A DNA stretch of 64,000 nt from a virus, in IMG/VR virus record IMGVR_UViG_3300045988_161200, one strand, 5' to 3'. Both the position numbers and the translations under genes were made by a program. Shown in pieces: positions 20,876 through 41,713 of the stretch (its first letter is position 1; each line of letters starts with the position of its first letter). The notes beneath the pieces were generated by a model, which made no database searches, was not told the origin of the DNA, and saw only the letters and a list, made by a program, of their open reading frames with translations.

Positions 20876-20886
20876 TTTTGTCCTCC

Positions 20887-22440: not shown

Positions 22441-22499
22441 GTGTTTTTTGGATTATCGGATAAAAAAGAACAAACCTGATGTGAGTCTGTTCCTTGTCA

Positions 22500-24254: not shown

Positions 24255-24287
24255 TTTTACCCTCCGTTATGCAATGATTATATGTTA

Positions 24288-24316
24288 ATGATACCATACC
24301 AATAGAGATATGTCAA
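24288..24316 (-). promoter_or_regulatory. Sigma-70-like promoter upstream of the integrase
   Basis: Minus strand reads TTGACA-17 nt-(TGG)TATCAT, ending about 34 nt before ATG 24254. Confidence 0.5.
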
Positions 24317-25069: not shown

Positions 25070-25203
25070 ATATGCTCCTTTATTTTAATTTTTCTTTTAA
25101 AAATAAGCCCATACTCTGGCTTTGATATATGTCTTATCTTTTATAAATTTATTACGCATCTAGATGAGAATACCAATTATACCAGTTATGATATAATAAA
25201 TCA

Positions 25204-26289
25204 TCATATATAGCCTCTTACTTTCTTTATATTTTTCTTAATACTTTCAATAACATAATTGACTTCTTCATCTGTAAGTGTATCGTCCCAAGATAATCTT
25301 ATACTATTGTATATATATTCCTTGGGTGTTCCTATGGCTTTTAAAACGTGTGACGGCTCTAAGCTTGCTGAATTACAAGCTGAACCCGATGACACACAAA
25401 TACCGTCCATATCTAGGAGGAGCATAAGGCTTTCTGATTCTACATTATTAAAAGCTACATTAAGCGTTGATGATATGGAATGAGTTACATTTGTATTGAA
25501 ATAAACATCTTGCCAAAACGAAAAAGCATCAACAAATTTGTTCTGTATTTCTCTGCAACGTTTATCTCTTTCGGAAGAAAAATTATAGAGTTCAGCAGCT
25601 TTACCAATACCTACAATAGATGCTACATTTTCTGTCCCTGCCCTATGATTGGTTTCCTGCTGACCACCATAAAGCATAGGTTTAAACTTGTCGGGTCCTT
25701 TTATGTACAGTATACCTATGCCTTTCGGACTATGGAATTTATGACCACTAAGACTTAGAAAATCACAGTCAAGTTCTTTAACGTCTATTGGGACGTGATT
25801 GAAAGCTTGAGTTCCGTCAGAATGAAACAAAACCCCCATTTCGTGAGATATTTTTGCCATATCTGCAATGTCATATATCTGTCCAATTTCGTTATTGACA
25901 AACATATGGGAGACCAAATCGGCAGAATATCTAAAGATATCATTGGTGAGAGGTGCAAAGGTTCTCATTTCTGTCGTATGTGGTCTTTTAAGTATTGAAT
26001 GATGTTCATATGGTGAACAAAGTATACTCTTAAAGTTTGAACACACCCAATTATTGCTCTCTGTAGCTCCTGATGTAAAAAATATCTGATTAGGTTCTGC
26101 GTTAATAGCCTTTGCAATTTGGTTTCTCGCTGTTTCTACAGCTTTGTGTGCTGTTCTGCCGAGAGAATATAACGATGATGGATTACCATACTGTTCTGTA
26201 AGATACGGCATCATAGCATCAAGAACTGGCTTGGTTATTAGGGTAGTAGCGGCGTTATCAAGATAAATTGGTTTGTTAATAGTTATCAC
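25204..26289 (-). CDS. Cysteine desulfurase (NifS/IscS-like, class V aminotransferase)
   Basis: YLDNAATT; PLP-lysine motif SGHKFHSPKGIGILY; active-site SSGSACNS. Confidence 0.85.
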   Translation of the reverse strand: MITINKPIYLDNAATTLITKPVLDAMMPYLTEQYGNPSSLYSLGRTAHKAVETARNQIAKAINAEPNQIFFTSGATESNNWVCSNFKSILCSPYEHHSILKRPHTTEMRTFAPLTNDIFRYSADLVSHMFVNNEIGQIYDIADMAKISHEMGVLFHSDGTQAFNHVPIDVKELDCDFLSLSGHKFHSPKGIGILYIKGPDKFKPMLYGGQQETNHRAGTENVASIVGIGKAAELYNFSSERDKRCREIQNKFVDAFSFWQDVYFNTNVTHSISSTLNVAFNNVESESLMLLLDMDGICVSSGSACNSASLEPSHVLKAIGTPKEYIYNSIRLSWDDTLTDEEVNYVIESIKKNIKKVRGYI

Positions 26290-26516
26290 TCCCTCATAAG
26301 TTTATATAAATCGGTTGGATTATCGGCTTTGTGTTTAGTTTTTATAATTGTATCGTTTGTAACTTCATACAAGTAATAAACATCTCTGAGTACAGTAGAT
26401 GTTATGTAGTATTTTGGTTTACCATCAATTTTATAGGTTAAGCAGACAGTTTCACCTTTACTGAATGGTGATTTGATGTTTTCTGTCTCGGTTTCTGTTT
26501 TCTTAGGTCTTGGCAT
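26286..26516 (-). CDS. Hypothetical protein
   Basis: 76-aa ORF with an AAAGGAGGG RBS. Its stop overlaps the desulfurase start. Confidence 0.55.
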   Translation of the reverse strand: MPRPKKTETETENIKSPFSKGETVCLTYKIDGKPKYYITSTVLRDVYYLYEVTNDTIIKTKHKADNPTDLYKLMRE

Positions 26517-26530
26517 TTCGCCCTCCTTTT

Positions 26531-26568
26531 AGGCTCTTGTCTTTAATTTTGGCAAGAGCCTATTTTTT
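26531..26568 (+). terminator. Hairpin with T-tract oriented against the local minus-strand operon
   Basis: AGGCTCTTG (26531-26539) / CAAGAGCCT (26553-26561) followed by TATTTTTT on the plus strand. Confidence 0.4.
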
Positions 26569-26581
26569 ACGGTTTTTAGAT

Positions 26582-27073
26582 TTAGTCACAATAAAGGACT
26601 ACTTTGTTTTGTTTAAGGGATTCTTGAACGTCAATGACACGTTGATTTGAGCTTCCTCGCCAAGCCAATGAAATATCTCTTTTATCGTGCAAATATGCTC
26701 CGTCAACTACTATATGTAGTGTTTTTAGAATGTCAAAACACAATATATAGTTCCATTCATACCCTGTATATAACCATTGCTTGATAGTTGGAAATCTATC
26801 ATATACTTCTTGCGAAATTTTAGCAACAGTGTCTATATTTTTAGGATCAAGAGGGTGTCCACCCGAAAAAGTTAGCCGAGAGATATAAGGCTTGTCAAGT
26901 GCTTCAAGAATTTCCTGCATTGTATCCTCTGTAAAGGGTTGCCCTGCATTAAAATCCCAAGTTTGAGGATTATGACAGCCGTGGCAATGGCAGTTGCACC
27001 CTGATACCCAGAGTACAACCCCTATGCCTGTGCCGTTAGCAGTATCACACTTACTGATTTTTATGTAATTCAT
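26582..27073 (-). CDS. nrdG: Anaerobic ribonucleotide reductase activating protein
   Basis: Radical-SAM cluster motif GCNCHCHGCHNPQTW. Small size. Coupled to nrdD. Confidence 0.85.
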   Translation of the reverse strand: MNYIKISKCDTANGTGIGVVLWVSGCNCHCHGCHNPQTWDFNAGQPFTEDTMQEILEALDKPYISRLTFSGGHPLDPKNIDTVAKISQEVYDRFPTIKQWLYTGYEWNYILCFDILKTLHIVVDGAYLHDKRDISLAWRGSSNQRVIDVQESLKQNKVVLYCD

Positions 27074-29265
27074 TCGTCATCGCCAAGATGTATAACTCTT
27101 TCTTTTATTTCTTGAGTTCGCCCTGCGTTCCAAAAATTACTTCCTATATAACCGCAAGTACGACGTGCTACATTAAGCTTCTTTTCGTCTCTATTACCAC
27201 AATTAGGGCATTCCCATACAAGTTTACCTGTTTTCTTATCTTCAATAATCTGTATCTCGCCATCAAATCCGCACACCTGACAATAATCAGATTTTGTGTT
27301 AAGTTCAGCATACATTATATGGTCATAGATAAACTTGATTACTTCAAGCACAGCTTCAATATTATTGCTCAAATTAGATGTCTCCACATAAGATATTGCC
27401 CCTCCTGTTGAAAGAGACTGAAATTCAGATTCTATAGAAAGCTTTGTGAAAGCATCAATAGGTTCTGTGACGTGTATATGATAACTATTGGTTATGTAAT
27501 TCTTATCAGTTACACCCTTTATAATACCGAAACGCTTCTGGAGGCACTTTGCAAACTTATACGTAGTTGATTCTAAGGGCGTGCCATAAATTGAAAAGCC
27601 AAGATTAAGTTCTCTATCCCATTCCTTGCACTTATCATTCATATACTGCATTATCTTCTTGCCAATATCCCGACCTGTTTTTTCAGTAAGTTTATAGCCA
27701 GTCAAAGCATAAACACATTCCCACAGACCTGCATAACCAAGAGAAATACTTGAATAACCACCTGTAAGGTATTTATCAATTACTTCACCCTTTTTAAGTC
27801 TTGTTAATGCTCCATACTGCCAAAGGATAGGTGCAACATCTGATGGTGTACCTTTAAGCCTTTCATATCTACAAATCAATGCTCTATGACAAAGTTCAAG
27901 ACGTTCATCAAATATCTTCCAAAATTCTGTCATTATATCATTTGGGCTATTCTTTTTTGCTGTAAGTGCAACATCAACAAGATTAATTGTTACAACACCT
28001 TTATTAAATCTGCCATAGAATTTATAATTTCCGTTTTCATCTTTCCACGGTGAAAGGAAGCTTCTACATCCCATACTTGTAAAGCAATGACCGTCTTTAA
28101 GCTGCTTCATTACCTTTTCACTAATGTAATCTGGAACAAGCCTTTTTGCAGTACACTTTGCAGCAAGTTTGGTAAGATAATAATAAGGTGAGTTCTCGTG
28201 GATATTATCTTCTTCAAGGACATAAATAAGTTTCGGAAAAGCAGGTGTTATCCAAACGCCTACTTCATTCTTAACTCCCTGATAACGCTGTTTAAGCACT
28301 TCTTCAATAATCAGAGCAAGGTCGTGTTTTGTTTGCTTATCTTGTACTTCCCCCAAATATATAAATATGGTTACGAATGGGGACTGACCATTTGTTGTCA
28401 TAAGAGTTACTATCTGATACTGAATCGTTTGAACACCACGTTTAACCTCATCAAGAACACGATTTTCAACTATCCTATCAATTGTATAATTATCAAGTCC
28501 CATTGTCTTACCATTTACAAGATTAACCTCATCTTCTACCTGCTTTCTTATTTTCTTTCTTGAAATATCAACAAAGGGAGCAAGAGCTGATAAGGAAATA
28601 CTCTGACCACCATACTGATTACTTGCTACTTGTGCAATAATTTGTGTTGTAATAGTACAAGCAGTTGCAAAGCTATGAGGCTTTTCAATCATTGTGCCTG
28701 AAATTACTGTTCCGTTCTGAAGCATATTACCAAGATTTACAAGGCAACAATTCGACATATGTTGAACGAAATAGTCAGAGTCGTGGAAATGGATAAGTCC
28801 ATTATTATGTGCCTTAACAATATCATCGGGAAGAAGAACTCTATTTGTCAAATCCTTTGAAACCGTGCCAGCCATATAATCTCTCTGTGTAGGAAGTAAT
28901 GTAGGATTTTTGTTTGAATTTTCTTCTTTAACTTCTTCGTTAGCACAGTCAATGAGTGAAAGAATAGTATCATCAGTATTATTCATTGTTCTTGCTAACA
29001 TTCTTTTATATCTATATGTAATATAAGCCTTTGCAACTATACCATCATATTCAATAAGAGCATTTTCAACAACGTCCTGTATCTGTTCAACGGTAATTTC
29101 ACCCATAAAATATATCTTATTTAAAACAAAATCAGTTATTGTTTCGGCATCTGTCTGATTTGTCTTATAATCAGGATAGACTTCTTCATAAGCTTTCAAC
29201 ACTGCATTACAAATCTTATTCTTATCAAATGGAACTTTCTCCCCATTTCTTTTTATAACTATCAT
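27070..29265 (-). CDS. nrdD: Anaerobic (class III) ribonucleoside-triphosphate reductase
   Basis: N-terminal ATP-cone (VIKRNGEKVPFDKNKI), C-terminal zinc site CQVCGF...CPNCGN, glycyl-radical motif RRTCGYIG. Confidence 0.9.
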   Translation of the reverse strand: MIVIKRNGEKVPFDKNKICNAVLKAYEEVYPDYKTNQTDAETITDFVLNKIYFMGEITVEQIQDVVENALIEYDGIVAKAYITYRYKRMLARTMNNTDDTILSLIDCANEEVKEENSNKNPTLLPTQRDYMAGTVSKDLTNRVLLPDDIVKAHNNGLIHFHDSDYFVQHMSNCCLVNLGNMLQNGTVISGTMIEKPHSFATACTITTQIIAQVASNQYGGQSISLSALAPFVDISRKKIRKQVEDEVNLVNGKTMGLDNYTIDRIVENRVLDEVKRGVQTIQYQIVTLMTTNGQSPFVTIFIYLGEVQDKQTKHDLALIIEEVLKQRYQGVKNEVGVWITPAFPKLIYVLEEDNIHENSPYYYLTKLAAKCTAKRLVPDYISEKVMKQLKDGHCFTSMGCRSFLSPWKDENGNYKFYGRFNKGVVTINLVDVALTAKKNSPNDIMTEFWKIFDERLELCHRALICRYERLKGTPSDVAPILWQYGALTRLKKGEVIDKYLTGGYSSISLGYAGLWECVYALTGYKLTEKTGRDIGKKIMQYMNDKCKEWDRELNLGFSIYGTPLESTTYKFAKCLQKRFGIIKGVTDKNYITNSYHIHVTEPIDAFTKLSIESEFQSLSTGGAISYVETSNLSNNIEAVLEVIKFIYDHIMYAELNTKSDYCQVCGFDGEIQIIEDKKTGKLVWECPNCGNRDEKKLNVARRTCGYIGSNFWNAGRTQEIKERVIHLGDDE

Positions 29266-29798
29266 TTAATCACCCTTTCAATCTCAGACCAGTCTTTGCA
29301 TCTGCATACAGAATGTTCTTCATCGTTGTAATTTCTATTCCAAGGATAATCAAGTACAATCTTGTTGTATTTACCACCTACGAGGTTATCATAACAATCA
29401 TCAATAAGAACATCTATTCCATTGAGTAACTGTTTCTTTTGAATACAAATAAGTCTCTTGCGAATATTCAGAAATGGAAGTATTCTCTGCAACCAATTAG
29501 CCTTTTTAAGCATATTTGCAGGCTCGGTAGATGTTACAATATAAATTGTATGACCTAAATCGTTCCACTTTTTAAGCACATCTACACAGCCGTCAATTAC
29601 AGAAATTCCTTTCCATACTCTTTTATCAGTGAAAAGCTTATAGAAATTATCTTTACACTCAGGCTTAACAAAGTTTTCGATGTAGTAATCAGTAATATCA
29701 TCTGGTGTAAGATTGTCATTATAGTCTTCGTTATAGACTTTAAGAACGCTCTCGGTGAGATTGTTTAGGACATTATCACAGTCAACACCTATAATCAC
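29262..29798 (-). CDS. 5'(3')-deoxyribonucleotidase (HAD, NT5C-like)
   Basis: DxD motif IIGVDCDNVLNNL; later IYIVTS and LIDD. GTG start overlaps the upstream stop. Confidence 0.7.
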   Translation of the reverse strand: MIIGVDCDNVLNNLTESVLKVYNEDYNDNLTPDDITDYYIENFVKPECKDNFYKLFTDKRVWKGISVIDGCVDVLKKWNDLGHTIYIVTSTEPANMLKKANWLQRILPFLNIRKRLICIQKKQLLNGIDVLIDDCYDNLVGGKYNKIVLDYPWNRNYNDEEHSVCRCKDWSEIERVIK

Positions 29799-30337
29799 TT
29801 TATCACGTCCTTTATATTTATCACGTCCTTTATATTTATCACGTCCTTTATAAAGTCTATCGTGTTATTTCTAAGGTCATCAAGAGAACCTGTGTTCTGA
29901 ACAATATAATCATACTCATAATTCTCTGCTACTGCCTTGTCTGCCGAATTATCGGCTGTAATTGTCTTATTGGATTTAACAAATACTGTCTTTGCATTAA
30001 GTGCCTGTTTCAGACGTTCAATCTTCTTAGGTTCTCTGCAATCAATGAACAGCCAATCTCCTTCCAGCCAGTTCTGATGAAAGTTATCAGCGATATTAAG
30101 ACAATCCTTAAAAGGAATATCATTATACTCTTCAAGAGCATTATTTACATCACAAAGGAGTTTTCTAAGTTTATTTGACTTGTCCTTAATGTTAATGCCC
30201 TTACTTTCAAGCATATCACTTGTAAAGTCCACATAAGAGTAATGAACAACATCAATACCGTATTCATTTATGTATTTTACAAACGTATCTTTGCCAGATG
30301 TATGTACACCATTAAGAATAAATATTCTTTTACTCAA
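29795..30337 (-). CDS. P-loop kinase-like protein (dNMP-kinase-like) with repeat tail
   Basis: Walker A-like ILNGVHTSGKDTF. C-terminus is IKDVINIKDVINIKDVIK. Confidence 0.5.
   Translation of the reverse strand: MSKRIFILNGVHTSGKDTFVKYINEYGIDVVHYSYVDFTSDMLESKGINIKDKSNKLRKLLCDVNNALEEYNDIPFKDCLNIADNFHQNWLEGDWLFIDCREPKKIERLKQALNAKTVFVKSNKTITADNSADKAVAENYEYDYIVQNTGSLDDLRNNTIDFIKDVINIKDVINIKDVIK
29801..29854. repeat. 18-bp tandem repeat, three copies, in frame
   Basis: TATCACGTCCTTTATATT occurs at 29801, 29819 and 29837 (last copy differs at its end). It encodes the (I/N)IKDV repeats at the 3' end of the kinase-like gene. Confidence 0.9.
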
Positions 30338-31007
30338 TCATTATCATCTCCTCTAATCTTTTATGTTTACCACAACTCTTATTTTCAGGACAGAATGAAA
30401 TCTTGTTAATTTCACATTTAGGAACGCAATAAGGCACAAGTTCAGGGCAAACCTCAATTACACATTGCTTCATTTCCTGTGCGAGTTCTCTTATTTCCCA
30501 CTGCGCTCGTGTACAAAGTCTTTCATTAAAGAAGTGCATTAGATTTCTAAAATCAAAAGAACAGTCAATAACTGTACAACAAGCATTAGGTAATATCATT
30601 CTTGCATCTTCAGCAGGCACACCCATTGAAATCAGATCGTTATAAGATGTTTGAATACGTCCTATGATATTTTCATAAATGGTATCTGCTGATTTATTAT
30701 TGGCAATAGTATTAGGGGTTACATATTTAAAGCCATCTTCAATACAATATCTTTGACTTCTTACTTCAAATTTTCCTGTCCTGTGACGTGTTATCTGTGC
30801 AAGTAAAGCTCTTGAAACACCCTCAATGTGGAAATGAAACTGAGCAAATTCCATTACTGACAGATGCCCTGAATTATAGCACTGTTTCACGATCTTGCCA
30901 GTAGATGAAGGATTACTGTCATAACAGTTACTTGCAGCAGACTCCATTGCAAGAATAGGTTCATTCGTGTATCTTACAAGTTCTACTTTCAATCCTCTAC
31001 CCTCCAC
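30330..31007 (-). CDS. thyX: FAD-dependent thymidylate synthase ThyX
   Basis: ThyX signature ITRHRTGKFEVRSQRY. The start may be TTG 30992, which overlaps the upstream TGA. Confidence 0.85.
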   Translation of the reverse strand: MEGRGLKVELVRYTNEPILAMESAASNCYDSNPSSTGKIVKQCYNSGHLSVMEFAQFHFHIEGVSRALLAQITRHRTGKFEVRSQRYCIEDGFKYVTPNTIANNKSADTIYENIIGRIQTSYNDLISMGVPAEDARMILPNACCTVIDCSFDFRNLMHFFNERLCTRAQWEIRELAQEMKQCVIEVCPELVPYCVPKCEINKISFCPENKSCGKHKRLEEMIMIE

Positions 31008-31473: not shown

Positions 31474-32150
31474 TCTTCTGTTTCAATCCTTTCTATAGAT
31501 TTTATATTTCCCTTTAAATAATCAAAATAGCTTACTGTTCCTAATCTTCTCGGTACTTTAGGTAAAACATCCGTGTCAACTATAAATTCAAGCACGTTAC
31601 CACTAAAGAAGATGCCGTTTTCATCATAAATAGGTGTGTACTGATTGAAATAATCTGTGTGTATATCCTGCTTAATATCCCCTATTATGACTGTTATTTC
31701 ATTATCTGTATCAAGAGTTATTTTGAATCTGTCCCCAACATTCTCGGCATAATATGTTCCCATTGCAACTATGTAATCATCACCTATTCTGCGAAAACCG
31801 TCTTCATCAGTCCAAGCAAACTGTTGAAGTTCATACTGAGCAGAAGTTTTATCAGTAATACAACGATAATCCATATAGGTTTTAAACTCAGTATTGCAAG
31901 TTGGAATATCTAATGTTTCTATTGGTATCTCCATAGGGACTTCATAATATGTATTAGTAATGTTGCTTGATTTAGCAAGATTTTCAGCGGTGTATGTTAT
32001 ACTTGAATTTTTGCTTTTCATATTATTATTTACTTCTATTTCGTTTAAAGCAGAAGTTAAAGAATAAAAACCGATTGCCTGAACGATAATACTTAAAGCC
32101 ATAAAACCTGTCAGGGTGGACGTACCCTTTGTTTTTCTCTCATTATACAT
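31470..32150 (-). CDS. Membrane-anchored hypothetical protein
   Basis: N-terminal TM (GFMALSIIVQAIGFY), then a ~170-aa extracytoplasmic-looking domain. Confidence 0.55.
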   Translation of the reverse strand: MYNERKTKGTSTLTGFMALSIIVQAIGFYSLTSALNEIEVNNNMKSKNSSITYTAENLAKSSNITNTYYEVPMEIPIETLDIPTCNTEFKTYMDYRCITDKTSAQYELQQFAWTDEDGFRRIGDDYIVAMGTYYAENVGDRFKITLDTDNEITVIIGDIKQDIHTDYFNQYTPIYDENGIFFSGNVLEFIVDTDVLPKVPRRLGTVSYFDYLKGNIKSIERIETEE

Positions 32151-32168
32151 TATTCACGTTTCCTTTCA

Positions 32169-32390
32169 TTAATCACTTTCTATGTAATCTTCTAATTTAA
32201 TTTTAGGCACTGTTGAAATAAGACAATCTTGGCAAATTTGTTCTCCATCATATTCAAACAGCTCTTCTGTCTCATCTTCACACTCATCACAATAAAAATG
32301 AGGAACATTTCTGTTTCTGCAAGTGCTTCCTCGACAATGTAATGCGCAATCGCAACAATCGTTTTCAAATTTTATCATTCGTTTCATCAC
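32169..32390 (-). CDS. Cys-rich small protein
   Basis: 73 aa with several CxxC pairs (CCDCALHC, CDEC, CQDC). First gene after the promoter at 32412. Confidence 0.5.
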   Translation of the reverse strand: MMKRMIKFENDCCDCALHCRGSTCRNRNVPHFYCDECEDETEELFEYDGEQICQDCLISTVPKIKLEDYIESD

Positions 32391-32411
32391 CTCCTTAATT
32401 ATGATACTATT

Positions 32412-32439
32412 ATTATACCACTTTGAGAAATTCTGTCAA
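32412..32439 (-). promoter_or_regulatory. Consensus sigma-70 promoter with extended -10
   Basis: Minus strand reads TTGACA-16 nt-(TGG)TATAAT. Confidence 0.6.
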
Positions 32440-32460
32440 GTGATTTTTAATGCGTTTTTT

Positions 32461-32476
32461 ATTATTTACTTATAAT
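32461..32476 (-). promoter_or_regulatory. Palindromic 16-mer (candidate operator), copy 1
   Basis: Minus strand reads ATTATAAGTAAATAAT followed by A6, 22 nt upstream of the -35. Arms ATTAT/ATAAT are inverted repeats. Confidence 0.4.
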
Positions 32477-32493
32477 TTAACAAAAGAAAAATT

Positions 32494-33273
32494 TTATCTA
32501 TCCATATTTTTAATTCTATACTTAGCTACATCAGCCCAAAACCAATTTTCAAATTCTCCCTTACGGTCACAAATACCATTGTCTATACCTATGTAATTCC
32601 TATTTTCAAGTTGAGCAGCTTTCAAAATAGAACCTGAACCACAACAAAAATCAACTACCAAATCACCCTCGTTTGTATATGTACGAATTGCATACCTGCA
32701 AAGTTCAATAGTTTTCTGTGTAGGATGTAGAGAACATTTTTGTTTGTCGGTGGCAAATTTCCAAATGCTTGTTGGATAACGCTCTGTACTATCATAAGTA
32801 GTTAAGCCAAAGTCTCCATAGTTAGAAGTTTGAATACAATTTATTTTACTTTCAGCTTTACTCACTTTACGTTTATGCCCTGTTGTTTTCTGCGGATTAT
32901 AAGTAGGTAGCTTATTGTAGAAAACCATTATATCTTCATGTGTTCTCAAAGGTATTTTCTTTGCATTGAGATGACCCGTAGGTGTAGTTTTCTCCCAAAT
33001 GATATTATATTTGTGCATTTTCTCATTAGACAACATCATCTTAGCTGTAAATTTGTCTTGTCCGAAGAATAGGACTATACCGTTGTCTTTTAGTGTTCTT
33101 TCTATCTGCCTCCACATTGGTTCAGGTGGAATAATATTATCCCACTTGTTTTTTGCAGTCACTCCGTATGGTAAGTCAACAAAGTACATATTAACAGATT
33201 CATCAGGGATCTGTTTAAGTCCCTCGATACAGTCCATATTATAGACATTATTTATCTCAAGCGTTTTTATCAA
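32494..33273 (-). CDS. DNA methyltransferase (N4/N6 type, motif IV before motif I)
   Basis: Motif IV FVDLPYG near the N-terminus. AdoMet motif VVDFCCGSGS near the C-terminus. Confidence 0.85.
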   Translation of the reverse strand: MIKTLEINNVYNMDCIEGLKQIPDESVNMYFVDLPYGVTAKNKWDNIIPPEPMWRQIERTLKDNGIVLFFGQDKFTAKMMLSNEKMHKYNIIWEKTTPTGHLNAKKIPLRTHEDIMVFYNKLPTYNPQKTTGHKRKVSKAESKINCIQTSNYGDFGLTTYDSTERYPTSIWKFATDKQKCSLHPTQKTIELCRYAIRTYTNEGDLVVDFCCGSGSILKAAQLENRNYIGIDNGICDRKGEFENWFWADVAKYRIKNMDR

Positions 33274-33316
33274 CTCCTTTTATACAATAAAAGTGGATTT
33301 TTATTGCACAATTTCA

Positions 33317-33742
33317 TTAAAACATTTCACCTTTATAATTAAATATTGGCATAGTAATAAAATCGTAAGTTTTCAATTCATCTAATTCATTAAGGTTTGT
33401 CCAACATCCCTCATGAATCATCAAATTAGAATTATTGCCGAGATGAACAACTACGCAGGGAATGCCTTTTGCATAAGCATACCCACATTCCCACGCTGTT
33501 CCAGAGTCGGAATAACCACCGTGATAAAGCATTACCATTACATCAGATTTATCAATCTCGATACTGTCCATTTCAAATATTGATTTTGACCATTCTTTTG
33601 TACCTACTTCAAAGGTTCGATTTTCATGTTCTCTGGGTGAAAATACATCAAAACCTCTTTCTCTTAAAATTTGTTCTGCTGTAGTGACAGCGTTAATTTC
33701 ATTCTTGTTGAAAAATGGAGAAGCTAAATAAATTTTCATCAT
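33317..33742 (-). CDS. Nucleoside 2-deoxyribosyltransferase family protein
   Basis: KIYLASPFFN ... DSGTAWECGYAYAKGIP ... NLMI, the family pattern including the catalytic Glu context. Confidence 0.8.
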   Translation of the reverse strand: MMKIYLASPFFNKNEINAVTTAEQILRERGFDVFSPREHENRTFEVGTKEWSKSIFEMDSIEIDKSDVMVMLYHGGYSDSGTAWECGYAYAKGIPCVVVHLGNNSNLMIHEGCWTNLNELDELKTYDFITMPIFNYKGEMF

Positions 33743-33753
33743 TAATCATCCTT

Positions 33754-34116
33754 TCAGTTATCGCCTGTTATAGCAATTACTTTCTTCCAATAAGGTTTAT
33801 ACTTACTTAACTCCTTGGTTACCAAAGCATTAAATTCTTCGTCAGATAGATTGTCGTATTCTTCACAGTCTGCTAAGTAATCTGATAGAGCATTTTCAAA
33901 ATCATCTCTATCGTTATATAAATAGTCATCGCCAAACGGTAATGCACAATCAAGAATTTCATCAATACAGAAATGAATATCTGAGCAGTATGTATATCCA
34001 TAATCGTCTGAAACTGCATCATGTCCTACAAGAACCACAATGGGCAGGTCTGGATTTTCTGCGATAAGTTGTTTTAATTCGTCTGAACTTTTTGATAAAT
34101 TTAAGGGGTGTATCAT
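33754..34116 (-). CDS. Highly acidic hypothetical protein
   Basis: 120 aa with 27 D/E against 8 K/R by my count. No recognisable motif. Confidence 0.55.
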   Translation of the reverse strand: MIHPLNLSKSSDELKQLIAENPDLPIVVLVGHDAVSDDYGYTYCSDIHFCIDEILDCALPFGDDYLYNDRDDFENALSDYLADCEEYDNLSDEEFNALVTKELSKYKPYWKKVIAITGDN

Positions 34117-34128
34117 TTTATATTCTCC

Positions 34129-35205
34129 TTATACATTTTTTGTCCTCCATATATCACTTATCTCCTGATTATACTCAAAATCACTATTTACTGAATACCC
34201 TGTCAACCATTTTATAAGCCTATAATCAGATATTCTTAAGGATACATCTGTTTCTATTACAATACCCTCTATTCGCTTACAATTCTCACTCGGATAATTA
34301 CATTTTCCTGTCTTATACAACATACATTCATACTGCGCTTCATACTTCATTCTATACTCAAAAGGTAACTCTACCTCTCTATACATATGCTTCGCTTTAC
34401 GGCATTTCTCATTCATAAGGCATTTATTGCACTCTACCTCGTCTGGTCTGTAATAATGACAGTTATAATCCCTATCCTTATTATGTACATAAGATAGCAT
34501 ACATGATGTTTTATGAAATAATATTACAGAATTTTTATTCGCTTCTTCTCTTATTATCCTTTCTACTTCCTCTGATATAGGCTTCTTATGCCCAAATTCA
34601 TACCCCTCATATGGCTTTAAGTCTATATTATTTTCTTTCCAATACTCTACTACCTCTGGCTTACCCTGTAATCCACTATAACTTACACACATATTATACT
34701 TCTTTGCTATCTCCATTACCTTTGCTATTGTTTCTCTGTCATCATTTATTCCACAGCATATAGGTCTGAACTCAATAGAATATTTATAATTATACTTTCG
34801 ATTCTTGGTTTGTTCCAAATTACTTATAAATCTTTCCCAACTACCACCATCATATTTGTAATTCTTACCAAACGTTGAAAATGCTATATGCAAATCTAAA
34901 TTAAATGGTATATCAGGAAATTTTGAAAAATCACCTTTTGTTATTATTACTACTATACCCTTATGTCCTGCTTCTTCTAATCTATGTAAATATTCTACTG
35001 TCTTATCTACCTGTAATAAAGGGTCGCCATATGTGAGATTTATTGCTACTGGTATATTCTTAAATATAGGATTTATGTCGGTTGGTAATATGTCATACTC
35101 TACCTGCTTACAACCACCCTCTATTGCTCTACAATAACTACAATTAAAACAAGTCTTTAATGTTCTACCTAATGTATAAAATGATTTCTCAATATTTGTA
35201 CACAT
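34129..35205 (-). CDS. Fe-S enzyme, radical-SAM-like with a non-canonical cysteine motif
   Basis: N-terminal CFNCSYCRAIEGGC (CX2CX2CX6C) instead of CX3CX2C. INLTYGDPLL is typical of radical-SAM barrels. Further Cys clusters near the C-terminus (CNKCLMNEKC, CMLYKTGKCNYPSENC). Confidence 0.5.
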   Translation of the reverse strand: MCTNIEKSFYTLGRTLKTCFNCSYCRAIEGGCKQVEYDILPTDINPIFKNIPVAINLTYGDPLLQVDKTVEYLHRLEEAGHKGIVVIITKGDFSKFPDIPFNLDLHIAFSTFGKNYKYDGGSWERFISNLEQTKNRKYNYKYSIEFRPICCGINDDRETIAKVMEIAKKYNMCVSYSGLQGKPEVVEYWKENNIDLKPYEGYEFGHKKPISEEVERIIREEANKNSVILFHKTSCMLSYVHNKDRDYNCHYYRPDEVECNKCLMNEKCRKAKHMYREVELPFEYRMKYEAQYECMLYKTGKCNYPSENCKRIEGIVIETDVSLRISDYRLIKWLTGYSVNSDFEYNQEISDIWRTKNV

Positions 35206-35206
35206 T

Positions 35207-35803
35207 TTACTTCCTTCCCAATTTGTCCTGTGCTTCTTCTATTCTTTCTTTAGCTATCTCAAAATAATTTTCATCAAGTTCAATACCAATAAATTTACGA
35301 TTAAGTTGTTTGGCTGCAACTCCACAAGCGCCAACACCCATAAATGGGTCAATAACGGTATCGTTCTCATTTGATGAATTTTCAATCAAAATTTTGCACA
35401 AATCAACAGGCTTTTCGGTATCGTGAATATTTTTACCATTTTCGTCTTTAGTCTTTTTATTTGCAACAGATAATATATCTGATGTGCCACAATTATTTAT
35501 TTTTACTCCTGCGCCTTTGCGAAGAAACAATATGTATTCAAACTGGTTCATATAAAATTGACCCATTATTTTATTTCCCTTATCCCATATCAAGGACTTA
35601 ATGAAATGGAAACCACCACCTGTTTCTTCATCACTCCATTCATCAATGACTTTAAGAAAATGTGTAAGATTCTTATGATTGGTCATTATGTAGCAATGTC
35701 CTGTTTCTTTAAGTATCTTATAAAATTTTGGTAGATAATCCTCTATCTCGATATTATTATGTTCAAAGACTTGTCCTTTTCGATTTATCTTTTTCTGCAA
35801 CAT
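35207..35803 (-). CDS. DNA methyltransferase (N4/N6 type), C-terminal part lacking motif IV
   Basis: Contains TEKPVDL and AdoMet motif VIDPFMGVGACG. The reading frame upstream of the listed ATG reads PPPYKVTARGNAGNSGG. Confidence 0.8.
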   Translation of the reverse strand: MLQKKINRKGQVFEHNNIEIEDYLPKFYKILKETGHCYIMTNHKNLTHFLKVIDEWSDEETGGGFHFIKSLIWDKGNKIMGQFYMNQFEYILFLRKGAGVKINNCGTSDILSVANKKTKDENGKNIHDTEKPVDLCKILIENSSNENDTVIDPFMGVGACGVAAKQLNRKFIGIELDENYFEIAKERIEEAQDKLGRK

Positions 35804-35835
35804 ACCACCTGAATTACCAGCGTTTCCTCTTGCAG

Positions 35836-35961
35836 TTACCTTGTAAGGGGGGGGTCAGTAAATATCATATCTACCATTTTGTTTTTGCCTATCATACAAT
35901 CTAAAACATCTAATGCGTTTTCATTAAATATGATGCTATTATCGAATTTGTTATAATTCAA
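35836..35961 (-). CDS. N-terminal fragment of the same methyltransferase, in another frame
   Basis: AGGAAG RBS plus TTG 35961. NYNKFDNSIIFNENALDVLDCMIGKNKMVDMIFTDPP, then out of frame. Together with 35207..35803 it would make a complete DPPY enzyme. Confidence 0.6.
   Translation of the reverse strand: MNYNKFDNSIIFNENALDVLDCMIGKNKMVDMIFTDPPLTR
35847..35854. repeat. G8/C8 homopolymer tract inside the DPPY codons
   Basis: Plus strand reads TAAGGGGGGGGTCAG. Six residues would give GAC CCC CCT TAC (DPPY). Nine would give DPPPY in frame. Eight is out of frame. Confidence 0.9.
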
Positions 35962-36009
35962 ATTTTAACACTTCCTTTCAATTTACAATAAAACGAGTCA
36001 TTTATATTA

Positions 36010-36624
36010 TTACTTTATTACATCTCTTATATCTTGACCATCAATTTCATTACCGATGCTATCCCATCCTTTACAAGTAGTTCTTGCAAATAATTCTACC
36101 CTCGGAACATCACCGCAAAGCTCAACTATTTTGTCTCGAATATGTTCAGGCTTTTTGCTATGAGACATTACCCTGTCTTCTACTAACTGTGTCATAAATA
36201 TATTCCATTCATCATCTGTCATTTCTTCACGGACGATCTGATGAACACTCCTTGATAATCTATGAGGTTTACCCTTTGTGCCAAGTAAACATATTTCAGA
36301 ATTAGCTCTCGTCCAATAACCACATCCCCAAAAATCAGTATCAGATTTTTTGTTTTTCTTTACCCAATTAAAAGCACAAGTTTTATATGTAAAGCCCCAA
36401 CGTTCTATTGTTTCTATACCTTCTTTAAGAAGCGGAAATGTGACCCAAAGGAACAAAATGCAATCATCTGCTGTAATATTTTGTACAGGTAAGTTGTAAA
36501 TATCATTTATCTTCATTGTAGGATAATGATTTTCAGCCGATTTCTTTTCTTTACCCTTTTCAGAGTAAGTTTTAAAAAGCCACGGAGGGTCGGCATAAAC
36601 TATATTATATTTTCTTGTTATCAT
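36010..36624 (-). CDS. MT-A70 family N6-adenine DNA methyltransferase
   Basis: IVYADPPWLFKTY (DPPW motif), with length and layout typical of phage MT-A70 enzymes. Confidence 0.85.
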   Translation of the reverse strand: MITRKYNIVYADPPWLFKTYSEKGKEKKSAENHYPTMKINDIYNLPVQNITADDCILFLWVTFPLLKEGIETIERWGFTYKTCAFNWVKKNKKSDTDFWGCGYWTRANSEICLLGTKGKPHRLSRSVHQIVREEMTDDEWNIFMTQLVEDRVMSHSKKPEHIRDKIVELCGDVPRVELFARTTCKGWDSIGNEIDGQDIRDVIK

Positions 36625-36714
36625 TTTTACTTCCTTTCATCAAATACTGTTTTCATTGTATAATTTTGACTACATATAGTAATATTTTGAGTATAAAGTA
36701 CCATATATAGTATC

Positions 36715-36891
36715 TTAAATTTCGTTAACCACTTCAAATTGAACTGAGCCATCAACATAATCATCTGCTTCAAGAACAATATCACTATCGTAATACTTAT
36801 CCTTTACCTTTTGAATTGCCTCCTCTGAAGTTTCAGCTTCAATTTCAAGTCTACTTGTAAGTAACTCTGATACCTGTATTATATATTTCAT
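36715..36891 (-). CDS. Small DpnD/PcfM-like protein (not in the ORF track)
   Basis: 58 aa with an AAGGA RBS. MKYIIQVSELLTSRLEIEAETSEEAIQKVKDKYYDSDIVLEADDYVDGSVQFEVVNEI matches the DpnD/PcfM-like pattern as I recall it. Confidence 0.5.
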   Translation of the reverse strand: MKYIIQVSELLTSRLEIEAETSEEAIQKVKDKYYDSDIVLEADDYVDGSVQFEVVNEI

Positions 36892-36906
36892 TTTTATCCT
36901 TTTATA

Positions 36907-37560
36907 TTATGTATTTATCCACCCGATAACAGGTGCGTTATTATAATTGCCTACTTCCCAGACAAACCAAGCGTAGCACTTTGCAGATGACATTCTTTTT
37001 TCTGTTCCATCTTTATTGTAAAGAGTATTACCGTCTTTATCTTTTGCACTGAAATCACCGTTCATTCCACAAAGTAGTCTGTTAGCAGCTACCCACACTC
37101 TTACAGGTGGTCTTGTCTTAAAAAGTCTTATTCTTTTATCACTTTCAAGGAATTGTATCGGAAGAAATAGTGCAAGTTTCTTACCGCTTTCAAGCAAGTC
37201 AAGCGAATGTTCCGTCCACTCTAATGCTGTTGAATAGGGTGGATTAGTAACTATATTGTCAGCAAGAGATTTATTGCATTTGAAGAAATCAACATCACCT
37301 TCTCCATAACCTCTATCAACTAAGTCCGTGCTTACAACATCATAGCCAGCTTTAATCATAGACTCTGACAAATGACCCTCACCACAACAATTTTCCCAGA
37401 TAGAGCCATTAAATTTTTCTACTTTCATCAGTTCTTCAATGGCTTTAGGCTCAGTAGCATAATAATCGTGTTCAGCTCTATCGTGGTTGGTGTGATTACT
37501 TGCACCGAGCGTAACGAATGTTGTTTTCTTATTGCCTGTCCAATCTTTATTATCACTCAA
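36907..37560 (-). CDS. N6-adenine DNA methyltransferase (NPPY type)
   Basis: AdoMet motif WENCCGEGHL and catalytic IVTNPPYS. Confidence 0.8.
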   Translation of the reverse strand: MSDNKDWTGNKKTTFVTLGASNHTNHDRAEHDYYATEPKAIEELMKVEKFNGSIWENCCGEGHLSESMIKAGYDVVSTDLVDRGYGEGDVDFFKCNKSLADNIVTNPPYSTALEWTEHSLDLLESGKKLALFLPIQFLESDKRIRLFKTRPPVRVWVAANRLLCGMNGDFSAKDKDGNTLYNKDGTEKRMSSAKCYAWFVWEVGNYNNAPVIGWINT

Positions 37561-37579
37561 ATTTTAACATCTCCTTACT

Positions 37580-38443
37580 TTAATAGTTTGTTATCAGCAC
37601 TTCTATATCTTTGGTTTCTCGGTCTTTCTTGTGATAATTACAATTTAGATAGTCTCCAGATAAATAGTGAATATTATATTTATCTTTCCAAGCATCTAAA
37701 AATTCATTATTATATTTTAAGTTATTTGATAAAGCCCACCTTGCTCCCTGTTCGTCCAATCTATCCAGTAATTCGTAAAGTTTCTTTTCGTGTTCAGCAG
37801 TCCAACCCTCGAAGCCACGTTTCCCATCATTGTAATTACCAACAGAATTAAAATAAGGTGGGTCAAAATATATCAGATCGTTCTCGTTAAAGTCTGAAAA
37901 ATCAAAATTGAAAGCGTTTTTAGACGATACTATTATAGGGTCTTTATTCTCAAATCTCTGTTTTAAAGCAAGTAAGTCCTGTCTTTGCCTGTCAGAAAAA
38001 TAACTGCGATTTTTACCGAAACTACTATTATATTCGTGCTTGTTATTAAAACGGAACTGATGATTAAATGAATGGCACATCAAAGTATATAGTGTAATCC
38101 AATCTTTTCTGCCATTATTATAACTATCATGAAGTCTTTCAAAGCCTTCCTTATTTATCATACTCAAATCGTATTCTGAAATAATGTTTTCAATCTGCTT
38201 GATTATTTCATTATAAGACGTTGAGAACAATCCCGACACAATACTTGAAACATAAGGATTTATGTCGTTATATATGTAATAGTCTGCTTCTGTATTCATT
38301 AAAACCGTTCCTGAACCGCCGAAAGCATCTACAAACATTGAAATCTTTTTAGGAAACAAAGGTATAAGCTGCTTGATTAGACGATATTTATTACCTACAT
38401 AATTTATAGGTGATTTTATGTATTCCTGATTTATTTTTAACAT
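37580..38443 (-). CDS. dam: Dam-family (D12 class) DNA adenine methyltransferase
   Basis: PINYVGNKYRLIKQL, FVDAFGGSGTV, LIYFDPPYFNS. Confidence 0.9.
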   Translation of the reverse strand: MLKINQEYIKSPINYVGNKYRLIKQLIPLFPKKISMFVDAFGGSGTVLMNTEADYYIYNDINPYVSSIVSGLFSTSYNEIIKQIENIISEYDLSMINKEGFERLHDSYNNGRKDWITLYTLMCHSFNHQFRFNNKHEYNSSFGKNRSYFSDRQRQDLLALKQRFENKDPIIVSSKNAFNFDFSDFNENDLIYFDPPYFNSVGNYNDGKRGFEGWTAEHEKKLYELLDRLDEQGARWALSNNLKYNNEFLDAWKDKYNIHYLSGDYLNCNYHKKDRETKDIEVLITNY

Positions 38444-38480
38444 CTCCTTCTGCCAATAAAATTTTTGTTTTATAAAGTTT

Positions 38481-38843
38481 TTAATTATTTAATATTTTTG
38501 CCACTTCAACAAGAATATCAAAAATAGCTTGAGGTAGATATGCAATAAAACGATACTCTAAATCGTTAATATCTTTCGAGTAATCTAAAATAATACCATT
38601 TATATCCCCATTATTATTAAAGACACACTTAAAATAATCTGAATAATTATATATAGTGTTAATTACTTGAACTTTTGAATTTAGAAAAATGACATCTATT
38701 CCTTGACTATTAGCCATATGTTGTGCGCAAATACCACATCTGCCTAAATTATTTAAAGACACATAGGATTTACCTCTTTTGATTTGTTCTGCTAATATTG
38801 TAGCAATAATATATTCTGTTCCTACAAAATTGGTCATTTTCAA
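38481..38843 (-). CDS. Hypothetical protein
   Basis: 120-aa ORF (probable start ATG 38837). It has GRCGICAQH, but no confident family assignment. Confidence 0.5.
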   Translation of the reverse strand: MKMTNFVGTEYIIATILAEQIKRGKSYVSLNNLGRCGICAQHMANSQGIDVIFLNSKVQVINTIYNYSDYFKCVFNNNGDINGIILDYSKDINDLEYRFIAYLPQAIFDILVEVAKILNN

Positions 38844-38932
38844 TTAACCTCGTTAATATTATCATTTTTTGTACTTTTAGCTAAAAGTATCTTAGCAAGA
38901 GTTTTTACATTAGAAACAGACATATCATTCAT
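38840..38932 (-). CDS. Possible 30-aa micro-ORF
   Basis: TAATG coupling to the upstream stop, and its own stop overlaps the next start region. MNDMSVSNVKTLAKILLAKSTKNDNINEVN. Confidence 0.3.
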   Translation of the reverse strand: MNDMSVSNVKTLAKILLAKSTKNDNINEVN

Positions 38933-39177
38933 TATTGCTCCTGCAAAATAAAGATTAAATAAAAAATATAGTCTATTTCGTCATTGGACACCTGAAATTT
39001 CTCATATTTCATAACCAAATCATTGAACTTATGTATTGCTTCATCAATATGGTTGAGACGAATTATCTTACTGACAAATTCTTTGCAAGGCTCTTCACCT
39101 TCTAAATCTCCGCCATAATGTTCAATTTTATAGCACACATCTTTATGTATGCAATTATTACAAATCATTCTTATCAC
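38932..39177 (-). CDS. Hypothetical protein
   Basis: 81-aa ORF with N-terminal CNNCIHKDVC. Confidence 0.5.
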   Translation of the reverse strand: MIRMICNNCIHKDVCYKIEHYGGDLEGEEPCKEFVSKIIRLNHIDEAIHKFNDLVMKYEKFQVSNDEIDYIFYLIFILQEQ

Positions 39178-39178: not shown

Positions 39179-39622
39179 TCACTTCACGCAGACCAGTATT
39201 TCAACATCGGTATCGGCAAATACTTCTTCGATGATTGTCTTCACTTTATCCCATTGCAGGCGGTCTAATCCACAACCGATTCTTGGCATTGCGAATTTTA
39301 CATTTTCATCACTCGTTATTCCCTCACAACGCAAAATTTTAGCATCTTCAAGAGCCATTCTCATCGTTTTATAGGTAGGCTTTTGCCAATACTTTTCTTT
39401 TGTAACGAGACTAAGCTCAACGTCCCAACCTGTTGCGTGAGATACTAAGCAATCCCCTACTTCTACATTTTGATATTTTCTTTGAAGTTGTGCTTTTACT
39501 CCTCGTCTTGCAAACTCCTTAGCTATTCCTGCACCCATTGCAAGATCTGCGCTGATGCAGTGAACAAGAATGTAATCCGTTGGAACTGTAAATAAGTCTC
39601 GCTGTTCTTCTCTGATTATCAT
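39179..39622 (-). CDS. Macro domain protein (TARG1/OARD1-like ADP-ribose hydrolase family)
   Basis: DLFTVPTDYILVHCISADLAMGAGIAKEF ... LVTKEKYWQKPTY ... MPRIGCGLDRLQWDKV. Confidence 0.8.
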   Translation of the reverse strand: MIIREEQRDLFTVPTDYILVHCISADLAMGAGIAKEFARRGVKAQLQRKYQNVEVGDCLVSHATGWDVELSLVTKEKYWQKPTYKTMRMALEDAKILRCEGITSDENVKFAMPRIGCGLDRLQWDKVKTIIEEVFADTDVEILVCVK

Positions 39623-40839: not shown

Positions 40840-41274
40840 TTATAATTTATTGTTCTGTTTTTCTAATATTTCAAGTGCTTCTTTCTCAGTAATTAACCCT
40901 AAAGATATTGCTCCTAAAACAGGTTCACCTTTAAATGTATTATCATATAAATACTTCCAATGATACCCATTGGCAGACTTTAATCTGCCTTTCGCACAAG
41001 AGCAAATATCAGCGTAGTTGATTTTTAATTCTATCGAAGCTAATTTTGCATAGCTCCATATTTTAATTAAGTTGTCATATTTATCAAGTTGAAGAGTTAT
41101 TAAAGCTCTTGGATTTTTCTCTCCTGACTGAATATCTTTATGTGCTTCACTTTGCATTTTTCTTTGTTCTTCTGACCAATGAGTGCCATAGCGTGGATGG
41201 TTTTCCCCTGATATGGTTTTACTTAATTTTTCTCTACTTTCTTTTGACCAGATTCTATTTTTTATTTCTTTCAA
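40840..41274 (-). CDS. C-terminal half of an HNH homing endonuclease (NUMOD3-type repeats plus DNA-binding module)
   Basis: IWSKESREKLSKTISGENHPRYGTHWSEEQRKM... The listed start is a TTG inside the overlap with 41255..41713. Confidence 0.6.
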   Translation of the reverse strand: MKEIKNRIWSKESREKLSKTISGENHPRYGTHWSEEQRKMQSEAHKDIQSGEKNPRALITLQLDKYDNLIKIWSYAKLASIELKINYADICSCAKGRLKSANGYHWKYLYDNTFKGEPVLGAISLGLITEKEALEILEKQNNKL

Positions 41275-41713
41275 CCATTGCCAAATGTCCTTCTTCAGTA
41301 ACGTGCTTACGTTTTCCTTTTATAGCATCGCTTATTTTTCTACGATGTTCGTCTGTGAAAGGTTTTCCTGTGAGTAATTTGCTATACGCCTTTTTAGCTT
41401 CTTCGTATTCTTCTGGTGCAAGCACATCTGTTTGGCTTGTACGATTTTCAATCATATTCGACATACACCACCAAGCATAAACCAATCCGTCTACATTAGG
41501 ATTTTCTATAGCTAAAAGTTTATGAGCTATAAAATGTTCTCGTGCAAACAAATCAATTAAATTGTTTTCATCATTTGTACCACCCAAACATCTTGGTATT
41601 ATATGGTGTCTTTCGTGATATTCATCGCCACAATTAAATCTTCCACGAGTATCAATTATATTTTGTATAAATTTGTTGTATGTAATTTGTTCAAAGTTAT
41701 TTATTATTAGCAC
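41255..41713 (-). CDS. N-terminal half of an HNH homing endonuclease
   Basis: HNH core YHERHHIIPRCLGGTNDENNLIDLFAREHFIAH, then NUMOD3-like PFTDEHRRKISDAIKGK. Ends at the A6 run (41258-41263). Confidence 0.7.
   Translation of the reverse strand: MLIINNFEQITYNKFIQNIIDTRGRFNCGDEYHERHHIIPRCLGGTNDENNLIDLFAREHFIAHKLLAIENPNVDGLVYAWWCMSNMIENRTSQTDVLAPEEYEEAKKAYSKLLTGKPFTDEHRRKISDAIKGKRKHVTEEGHLAMVERNKK

Follow-up and report, generated by a model that had tools for sequence, protein, structure and literature searches.

The methyltransferase island

The 64,000-nucleotide stretch of viral DNA described here (IMG/VR record IMGVR_UViG_3300045988_161200, termed the window) carries between positions 32494 and 38443 a compact island of nine genes on the minus strand, in which five DNA methyltransferases are interleaved with an iron-sulfur (Fe-S) protein, a nucleoside 2-deoxyribosyltransferase, a DpnD/PcfM-like small protein and a 120-residue acidic protein. 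A first-pass annotation of this DNA had listed the same nine genes, and all of them are present. Over 21 kb the window matches ~134-kb contigs from human-gut metagenomes at 100% identity, and its gene content resembles that of SPbeta, with YorH, DNA polymerase III alpha, a RecD2-like helicase, DNA and RNA ligases, a PD-(D/E)XK nuclease and a large serine recombinase. The island belongs to a ~134-kb temperate phage of the human gut that resembles SPbeta, and is placed in the early/DNA-metabolism arm of this phage. The features of the island are given below in the order of transcription (pI, isoelectric point).

37580-38443, minus strand: Dam-type (D12-class) N6-adenine methyltransferase (PF02086, E 2.6e-27; phrog_56, E 8e-42), with DPPY at residue 194
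36907-37560, minus strand: NPPY DNA methyltransferase of the PHROG 799 type (phrog_799 "DNA methyltransferase", E 1.4e-59), with NPPY at residue 106
36715-36891, minus strand: DpnD/PcfM-like small acidic protein (PF14207, E 1e-13; pI 4.05)
36010-36624, minus strand: MT-A70 methyltransferase with DPPW (PF05063, E 8.2e-28; phrog_359, E 7e-78)
35207-35961, minus strand: frameshifted N6_N4 (beta-class) methyltransferase, made up of a 41-residue open reading frame (35836-35961) and a 198-residue open reading frame (35207-35803; PF01555, E 2.3e-30 on this frame)
35847-35854, minus strand: poly-C tract (C8) in the DPPY codons of the frameshifted methyltransferase, of a length that differs between samples
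34129-35205, minus strand: Fe-S protein, predicted to belong to an unnamed radical-SAM clade (Radical_SAM, E 0.009, below the Pfam threshold)
33754-34116, minus strand: 120-residue acidic protein (pI 4.05; phrog_23660, E 6e-11)
33317-33742, minus strand: nucleoside 2-deoxyribosyltransferase (PF05014, E 1e-21)
32494-33273, minus strand: N6_N4 methyltransferase with DLPY (PF01555, E 5.1e-27; phrog_67, E 1e-58)

All five of the methyltransferases detected across the 64-kb window fall within these 6 kb. The NPPY enzyme gives no match in Pfam and NCBIfam scans, and the DLPY/DLPF motif of the methyltransferase at 32494-33273 is kept in all three homologues checked. The spacers around the Fe-S, acidic protein and deoxyribosyltransferase genes are 11-12 nucleotides long. 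No restriction endonuclease family is matched among the island proteins in Pfam and PHROGs (unannotated small open reading frames lie outside these scans), and the five methylase genes form an orphan island, with several DNA methyltransferases and no cognate endonuclease. Because no endonuclease domain occurs among the scanned genes, the stack appears to fit an anti-restriction role, in agreement with how the first-pass annotation had read it. The methyltransferases, of four architectures (D12, PHROG-799 NPPY, MT-A70 and two N6_N4), would pre-methylate the phage DNA against host restriction.

Stacks of orphan methyltransferases are a known anti-restriction device of phages. The island is like them in the side-by-side placing of methylases of differing classes, in its location in the early/DNA-metabolism region and in a content that is mosaic among related phages. 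It is unlike plain methylase stacks in its interleaved cargo of a radical-SAM-like gene, a deoxyribosyltransferase, an acidic protein and DpnD, and in having one methylase turned off through a homopolymer frameshift. In a near-identity DNA search of window positions 32000-39000 against 50,697 cultured-phage records, the sole match is a 245-bp methylase stretch of a Fusobacterium phage.

Cargo exchange and the poly-C tract

Sibling phages carry a methylase-rich island at the same place, and their comparison with the window defines which genes move together. Two sibling loci, L168 and L169, are 97-98% identical to the window across the MT-A70 and N6_N4 methylases and 92-96% identical from the island end through ThyX, NT5C and NrdD. 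Between these blocks the alignment of both leaps from window position 35237 to 34139, with the Fe-S gene (34140-35236) exactly missing, and that of L168 leaps again from 33748 to 33305, with the deoxyribosyltransferase (33306-33747), which L169 lacks too, exactly missing. The 120-residue acidic protein comes straight after an intact methylase in both siblings. In L168 it is followed by N6_N4 and D12 methylases, and in L169 by a pair of small genes plus a Mom-family gene (PF25680; L169:6703-7590, ERR4334159_4439), the last in the stretch taken up in the window by the deoxyribosyltransferase and DLPY methylase. A further locus, L006, has an Fe-S gene 94% identical to that of the window and has in common with it only a Dam-to-DpnD block and a block of the Fe-S gene and the acidic protein, being without MT-A70, deoxyribosyltransferase or DLPY methylase.

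The Fe-S gene and the deoxyribosyltransferase gene each form a single-gene cassette, unrelated to and independent of the other. As they come and go as separate indels, and as the acidic protein occurs without the Fe-S gene, the tight packing of the genes marks a hot-spot for cargo and not one pathway. The region is a hypervariable, probably anti-restriction hot-spot that exchanges cargo among SPbeta-like gut phages; the methylase island itself follows an ordinary phage strategy and provides a clear case of a recombination hot-spot swapping putative anti-restriction genes. Since L169 carries a Mom-family gene there, the island can host non-methyl DNA-modification cargo. Mom of phage Mu belongs to this family, PF25680. 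The L169 member follows the acidic protein in that variable part of the island; Mom is not homologous to the Fe-S protein, and the window itself has no Mom gene. The first-pass annotation had raised the possibility that the island does more than methylate, and this idea survives only for the Fe-S gene taken alone; the joint pathway that it had proposed for the interleaved genes is unsupported.

The methylase at 35207-35961 had been noted as a split DPPY methyltransferase. The gene is present and its split can be refined to a frameshift, the 41- and 198-residue open reading frames forming one gene that is broken by the run of eight C in the DPPY codons. In silico, a C6 tract gives a single 250-residue open reading frame with DPPY and a C9 tract places DPPPY in frame, and either C7 or C8 results in a truncated protein. 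The tract is C8 in the window and in L076 and L077, C7 in L078 and C6 in L168-L170, all of which have an intact gene; these lengths are read from assemblies, each state in different ones, and may include homopolymer assembly error. In L078, which is another assembly of the same phage, C7 is the only indel over 12.7 kb, and the sibling phages with C6 encode an intact methylase of 243 residues (P0391) that is 98% identical. An exact-pattern scan of viral contigs for the flank of the tract gives no match.

In phasevarions, phase-variable methyltransferases are switched through slippage in simple repeats. The tract resembles these in being a homopolymer inside a coding sequence that is found at three lengths in natural samples with flanks otherwise near-identical. 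It differs from them in being carried by a phage, in lying within the catalytic DPPY codons and in showing one on state (C6) and two off states across separate assemblies. As a coding-sequence repeat that sets the reading frame and differs in length between isolates (C6, C7 and C8 in independent assemblies), the tract is a slippage-prone candidate for a phase-variable switch of a phage methylase, by which one of the N6_N4 enzymes would be turned off.

An unnamed clade of radical-SAM proteins

The Fe-S protein (34129-35205; 358 residues) has 359 homologous clusters at E <= 1e-3, with no Pfam domain and with only "hypothetical protein" as a name in the source records. Alignment of 24 homologues shows an invariant C19-x2-C22-x-Tyr-C25 loop and a GGE-like YGDPLLQ motif. 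Seven further cysteines are invariant in the same alignment (C235, C259-x2-C262-x5-C268, C294, C302 and C309) and form part of a C-terminal extension; the protein probably has two auxiliary Fe-S clusters. The canonical radical-SAM motif CX3CX2C ligates the [4Fe-4S] cluster that binds S-adenosylmethionine (SAM). The CX2CX2C loop of the Fe-S protein is one residue shorter than this motif, and its score of 16.6 bits with the Pfam Radical_SAM model (PF04055) lies under the cutoff of 29.5. The canonical spacing is present in more distant homologues, and the relatives P0138 and L024:8508-9293, also more distant, pass the PF04055 threshold.

The AlphaFold2 model of the Fe-S protein (pLDDT 85.7, pTM 0.87) has a partial (beta/alpha)6 TIM-barrel core. 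The best PDB matches in Foldseek are to the pyruvate formate-lyase-activating enzyme (3C8F/8FO0; E 5e-4, probability 1.00), with viperin and TYW1 lower, and the BFVD matches at a probability of ~0.9 and above are, if they carry a name, radical-SAM or Fe-S proteins, viral radical-SAM proteins included. A profile-profile alignment (hhalign) of the Fe-S family (A1) with canonical CX3CX2C relatives (A6) extends over 315 columns with a probability of 99.9% and E 2.4e-33. On this predicted fold and homology, the Fe-S protein is a radical-SAM superfamily member that stands outside any named subfamily. It has in common with the superfamily the partial TIM barrel, the loop of three cysteines that follows the first strand, an aromatic residue ahead of the third of these cysteines and the GGE-like motif, and is set apart from the named families by the CX2CX2C loop, the sub-threshold Pfam score, the seven extra cysteines and the existence of circularly permuted relatives.

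A profile search of 1.8 billion representatives returns 237 relatives of the Fe-S protein. Among those of at least 280 residues, the CX2CX2C loop is N-terminal in 14 and C-terminal (circular permutants) in 23, and the canonical CX3CX2C loop is N-terminal in 36 and C-terminal in 6. The canonical relatives weakly match the NCBIfam families PA0069 (22-35 bits against a cutoff of 360), "radical SAM mobile pair protein B" and Rv2578c (~1e-8, far under the cutoffs) and reach RlmN/Cfr at ~1e-3 in a profile search of the PDB. The Fe-S protein itself gives no match to NCBIfam PA0069, a family of the spore photoproduct lyase (SPL)/COG1533 type. In NCBIfam it has only weak matches, those to the HpsG activase and the CutC activase, the latter with 21 bits where the cutoff is 360, and it does not classify as a glycyl-radical activase. 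Sequence and profile searches of the PDB with the Fe-S protein return nothing useful, and it has no homologue among the 50,697 cultured-phage records. The PADLOC defence models match none of the Fe-S protein, its HAD partner described below, the acidic protein, the deoxyribosyltransferase and the NPPY methylase. Members of the family have a pI near neutral (6.3-9.0) and occur in gut Bacilli, candidate-phyla bacteria and both ordinary and jumbo phages.

In a permuted sister branch (P0154, P0163 and P0169; alignments A2/A3; loci L065-L070) the CxxCxYC loop is shifted to the C terminus. The permuted domain of P0163 and P0169 is fused to an N-terminal class-V pyridoxal phosphate (PLP) domain that resembles cysteine desulfurases of the SspA/DndA type, and in L065 and L066 a class-V PLP desulfurase-like gene adjoins the permuted Fe-S gene. 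A second, canonical radical-SAM protein is found next door in the permuted branch and is fused in P0138, a relative with an N-terminal motif. A fusion to MazG in P0198, a distant canonical relative, provides a weak hint only.

The gene neighbourhoods of the family were collected from viral, genome and metagenome collections, with one locus per 90%-identity cluster and at least 4 kb of flank (n = 74). Bacterial cassettes with a LysR and/or a HAD gene account for 30 of the 74, and those with both partners have the order LysR regulator, Fe-S gene, HAD hydrolase. Their hosts are of the gut Bacilli/Tenericutes type and include small-genome metagenome-assembled genomes, and their flanks vary (for example L002:7004-9757, with others among L017-L064). 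The HAD partner matches NT5C in 5 of 20 members (best E 2.8e-6). Extra cassette genes encode a PRA-PH/MazG-like pyrophosphohydrolase (six loci; E 2.7e-21), an HD-domain protein (3-4 loci), a dUTPase that overlaps the Fe-S gene and a cytidine/dCMP deaminase.

The other 44 loci are mostly phage-like and have within 5 kb a labelled nucleotide-metabolism gene in 13 cases, methylases in 6 and a deoxyribosyltransferase in 3. Examples of phage neighbours are a guanylate kinase overlapping the Fe-S gene together with NT5C, a dCMP deaminase, a class II ribonucleotide reductase, ThyX and an adenylate-kinase-like gene. At L009:6146-7141 and L014:4904-7963 the Fe-S gene is adjoined by a short PurA/PurZ-like adenylosuccinate-synthetase homologue, or by NAMPT with a phosphoribosyl pyrophosphate synthetase-like gene. 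At L001:10001-13145, where the Fe-S protein is 71% identical, the gene is followed by two radical-SAM proteins, one RlmN/Cfr-like and one MoaA/viperin-like, and by a class-I methyltransferase, with no DNA methylases nearby. The conserved, unnamed radical-SAM clade that the Fe-S gene marks is unusual in its cluster motif and is consistently linked, in genomic context, to nucleotide phosphohydrolases.

Possible roles of the Fe-S protein and its neighbours

The best guess for the Fe-S protein, on sequence and model, is that it may be a nucleotide-level radical enzyme, since its neighbours include nucleotide phosphohydrolases and nucleotide-metabolism genes; the neutral pI of the family is counted in support too. 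We infer that the enzyme would bind SAM at the N-terminal cluster, cleave it to give a 5'-deoxyadenosyl radical and transform a free (deoxy)nucleotide or nucleoside, not duplex DNA. The phosphohydrolases (HAD/NT5C-like, MazG-like, HD and dUTPase) would provide the enzyme with substrate or remove its product, and a NifS-type cysteine desulfurase of the phage would supply sulfur for the Fe-S clusters of both NrdG and the Fe-S enzyme. Radical-SAM enzymes are known to be paired with nucleotide kinases or phosphohydrolases, as in viperin/CMPK2 and in OxsB/OxsA of oxetanocin biosynthesis. Like these pairs, the Fe-S gene adjoins genes whose products add or remove phosphate (HAD/NT5C-like, MazG-like, HD, guanylate kinase and dUTPase); unlike viperin and OxsB, it is not a sequence member of either family. 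The explanation as a whole, a mosaic anti-restriction island with two unrelated cassettes and a nucleotide-level radical enzyme, is the best of those considered and is believed and doubted in about equal measure. The island is ordinary in kind, and the Fe-S family is new within a known superfamily.

Several points weigh against a nucleotide-level enzyme. The reference set used to label neighbours is small, many of the 44 non-cassette loci having no labelled neighbour, and the neighbour counts given above are raw, taken without the background frequency of these genes in phage genomes. Literature searches for the Fe-S motif or family return nothing relevant. SAM cleavage may not be possible with a cluster loop shortened to CX2CX2C. 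In the closest clade (the window, L006, L005 and L082) the Fe-S gene is always amid methylases, and the Mom-family gene nearby in the sibling island fits a DNA-level anti-restriction function as well. The PA0069/COG1533-type families, which the canonical relatives weakly resemble, are presumably related to the DNA-acting spore photoproduct lyase.

The embedding of the closest clade among methylases and the Mom gene of the sibling island keep alive the strongest of the alternatives, in which the Fe-S protein would be a stand-alone radical-SAM enzyme that marks phage DNA with a non-methyl or C-methyl group as Mom-like anti-restriction cargo. The placing of the gene in the variable part of the island, with Mom nearby in L169, its behaviour as a self-sufficient single-gene cassette and the weak resemblance of its canonical relatives to PA0069/COG1533-type families all agree with such a role, for which gp53 of phage M6 sets a precedent as a DNA-acting radical-SAM enzyme (PMC8989533). 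Gp53 is a spore-photoproduct-lyase-like isomerase of thymidine hypermodification that has the canonical motif and works with a 5-hydroxymethyldeoxyuridine (5-hmdU) DNA kinase and aGPT-Pplase (PMC8989533). The Fe-S protein is like gp53 in being a phage-encoded radical-SAM protein amid DNA-modification genes, with PLP enzyme partners in its sister branch. Action on DNA is nevertheless unlikely, as 30 of the 74 loci are chromosomal LysR/Fe-S/HAD cassettes that neighbour nucleotide phosphohydrolase genes and lie outside any DNA-modification context, methylases are near at just 6 of the other 44, the pI of the family is not basic and spore photoproduct lyase is absent from both the 50 Foldseek PDB matches listed and the PDB profile matches.

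The known pathways of DNA modification were set aside for the annotated part of the window at 24-62 kb. For thymidine hypermodification, ThyX is present and none of the dUMP hydroxymethylase, 5-hmdU DNA kinase and aGPT-Pplase is annotated. For Dnd/Ssp phosphorothioation the desulfurase is the only component found, with none of the DndCDE/SspBCD partners, and none of the defining genes of the 7-deazaguanine pathway is found.

A bolder and likewise doubtful proposal combines chemistry and context. The Fe-S protein would found a new radical-SAM class, with the CX2CX2C loop and two auxiliary clusters, in which a single gene installs a novel deoxynucleotide or DNA modification, serving as a phage anti-restriction device beside methylases and Mom and, in gut Bacilli with small genomes, as part of a regulated nucleotide-phosphatase cassette. 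The natural siblings with and without the Fe-S gene provide a ready comparison, through which new chemistry of nucleotides or DNA could be traced in the virome of the human gut. The gene is carried by contigs ERZ28567975 scaffold_118 and ERR636398 k127_71909 and is missing from the sibling contigs ERZ28637700 scaffold_8 and ERR4334159_4439.

It is improbable that the Fe-S protein makes no use of SAM and is a redox or structural protein whose radical chemistry was lost through the shortened loop. Such a loss would account for the Radical_SAM score of just 16.6 bits against 29.5 and for the absence of canonical spacing throughout the CX2CX2C subfamily, but the aromatic residue before the third cysteine and the GGE-like YGDPLL are invariant, and the homology to canonical CX3CX2C relatives is full-length. 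The shortened motif is kept in both the N-terminal and the permuted branches, and this conservation suggests a functional cluster site.

A role on protein, as a divergent activase or maturase of a glycyl-radical enzyme, for instance a spare activase of NrdD, is rated as very improbable. The pyruvate formate-lyase activating enzyme is the best structural match, the weak CutC and HpsG activases are the sole NCBIfam matches and the phage does encode NrdD. Against these stand the NrdG that already lies beside NrdD, the bacterial cassettes with no adjoining glycyl-radical enzyme, the NCBIfam scores far under threshold (21 bits against 360) and a C-terminal cysteine-rich domain that appears unlike those of CutC/HpsG-type activases.

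Least probable of all is the coordinated pathway of the first-pass annotation, in which the Fe-S enzyme, deoxyribosyltransferase, acidic protein and desulfurase would jointly make a modified base, for example by sulfur insertion followed by base exchange: the 11-12-nucleotide spacers, the class-V PLP desulfurase-like partners of the permuted branch (P0163, P0169, L065 and L066) and the deoxyribosyltransferase within 5 kb at 3 of 44 loci are in line with it, but it is made unlikely by the separate indels of the Fe-S and deoxyribosyltransferase genes, with L006 keeping the Fe-S gene and acidic protein without the deoxyribosyltransferase, and by the nature of the remaining components, an acidic protein found on its own, a close match to a cellular salvage enzyme and a typical group-I NifS near NrdG that is no more than a distant relative of the fused PLP domains (phmmer E ~1e-5 to 1e-6). 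An apparent fusion of deoxyribosyltransferase and radical-SAM domains in P0267, a distant canonical relative, was rejected, its domain scoring better as TIR-like.

The deoxyribosyltransferase scores 77.7 bits with PF05014 against a cutoff of 28.8 and aligns over 136 of 141 residues with the solved N-deoxyribosyltransferase of PDB code 6EVS (E 1.8e-27). Its SDSGTAWECGY segment aligns with DDTGTAWELGA of 6EVS, keeping the Glu-containing D-x-G-T-x-x-E-x-G pattern. By these similarities it is assigned as an ordinary nucleoside salvage enzyme of the Bacillus type, which, unlike the 6EVS enzyme, is phage-encoded and forms a single-gene cassette within a methylase island. With NT5C, a deoxynucleoside monophosphate (dNMP) kinase, ThyX and dUTPase nearby, and from established enzymology, its simplest role would be deoxynucleoside salvage and pool rebalancing. 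It would serve the neighbouring nucleotide module, with dNMP converted to deoxynucleoside, followed by base exchange and re-phosphorylation.

The acidic protein belongs to a family of 276 homologues that is found beside methylases without the Fe-S gene and also distant from both. This occurrence without the Fe-S gene rules it out as an obligate Fe-S partner, and it is an independent phage early gene. Its confident structure model gives no fold match in the PDB, a result that speaks neither for nor against a role as a DNA-mimic anti-restriction factor.

The desulfurase and the other features on the downstream side of the island are as follows.

32412-32439, minus strand: sigma-70-type promoter-like site (TTGACA, 16 nucleotides, TG, TATAAT; 12/12 match with an extended -10; pattern match only)
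24566-31007, minus strand: nucleotide-metabolism module directly downstream of the island, with ThyX, a dNMP-kinase-like protein, NT5C 5'-deoxynucleotidase, NrdD, NrdG, a NifS-type cysteine desulfurase and dUTPase (Pfam and NCBIfam matches)
25204-26289, minus strand: cysteine desulfurase of the NifS type (376 bits with the NifS model) that has the PLP lysine and an SSGSAC catalytic loop

The first-pass annotation had placed a cysteine desulfurase on the same arm, and it is borne out by the gene at 25204-26289. The NifS model scores higher than DndA (376 against 282 bits, both below cutoff). A single small open reading frame separates the gene from NrdG, its distance to the Fe-S gene is 7.8 kb, and its product would most simply supply sulfur for Fe-S cluster assembly. 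The promoter-like site sits between the island and the nucleotide module, upstream of a 73-residue cysteine-rich open reading frame (32169-32390), and may be the start of the next (nucleotide-metabolism) transcription unit.

On the upstream side, a macro-domain protein (PF01661, E 2.7e-5) is encoded just outside the island at 39179-39622 on the minus strand and is kept in the sibling phages; it may counter ADP-ribosylation-based defence. Two neighbouring HNH/NUMOD3 homing-endonuclease-like genes are located 2.4 kb upstream of the island (40840-41713, minus strand). Near 20 kb, in the region 19600-24300 of the window, coding switches to the other strand and the GC (guanine-cytosine) skew changes sign. 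This strand-switch junction holds the large serine recombinase (22500-24254) and a helix-turn-helix regulator (20294-20890), both consistent with a temperate phage.

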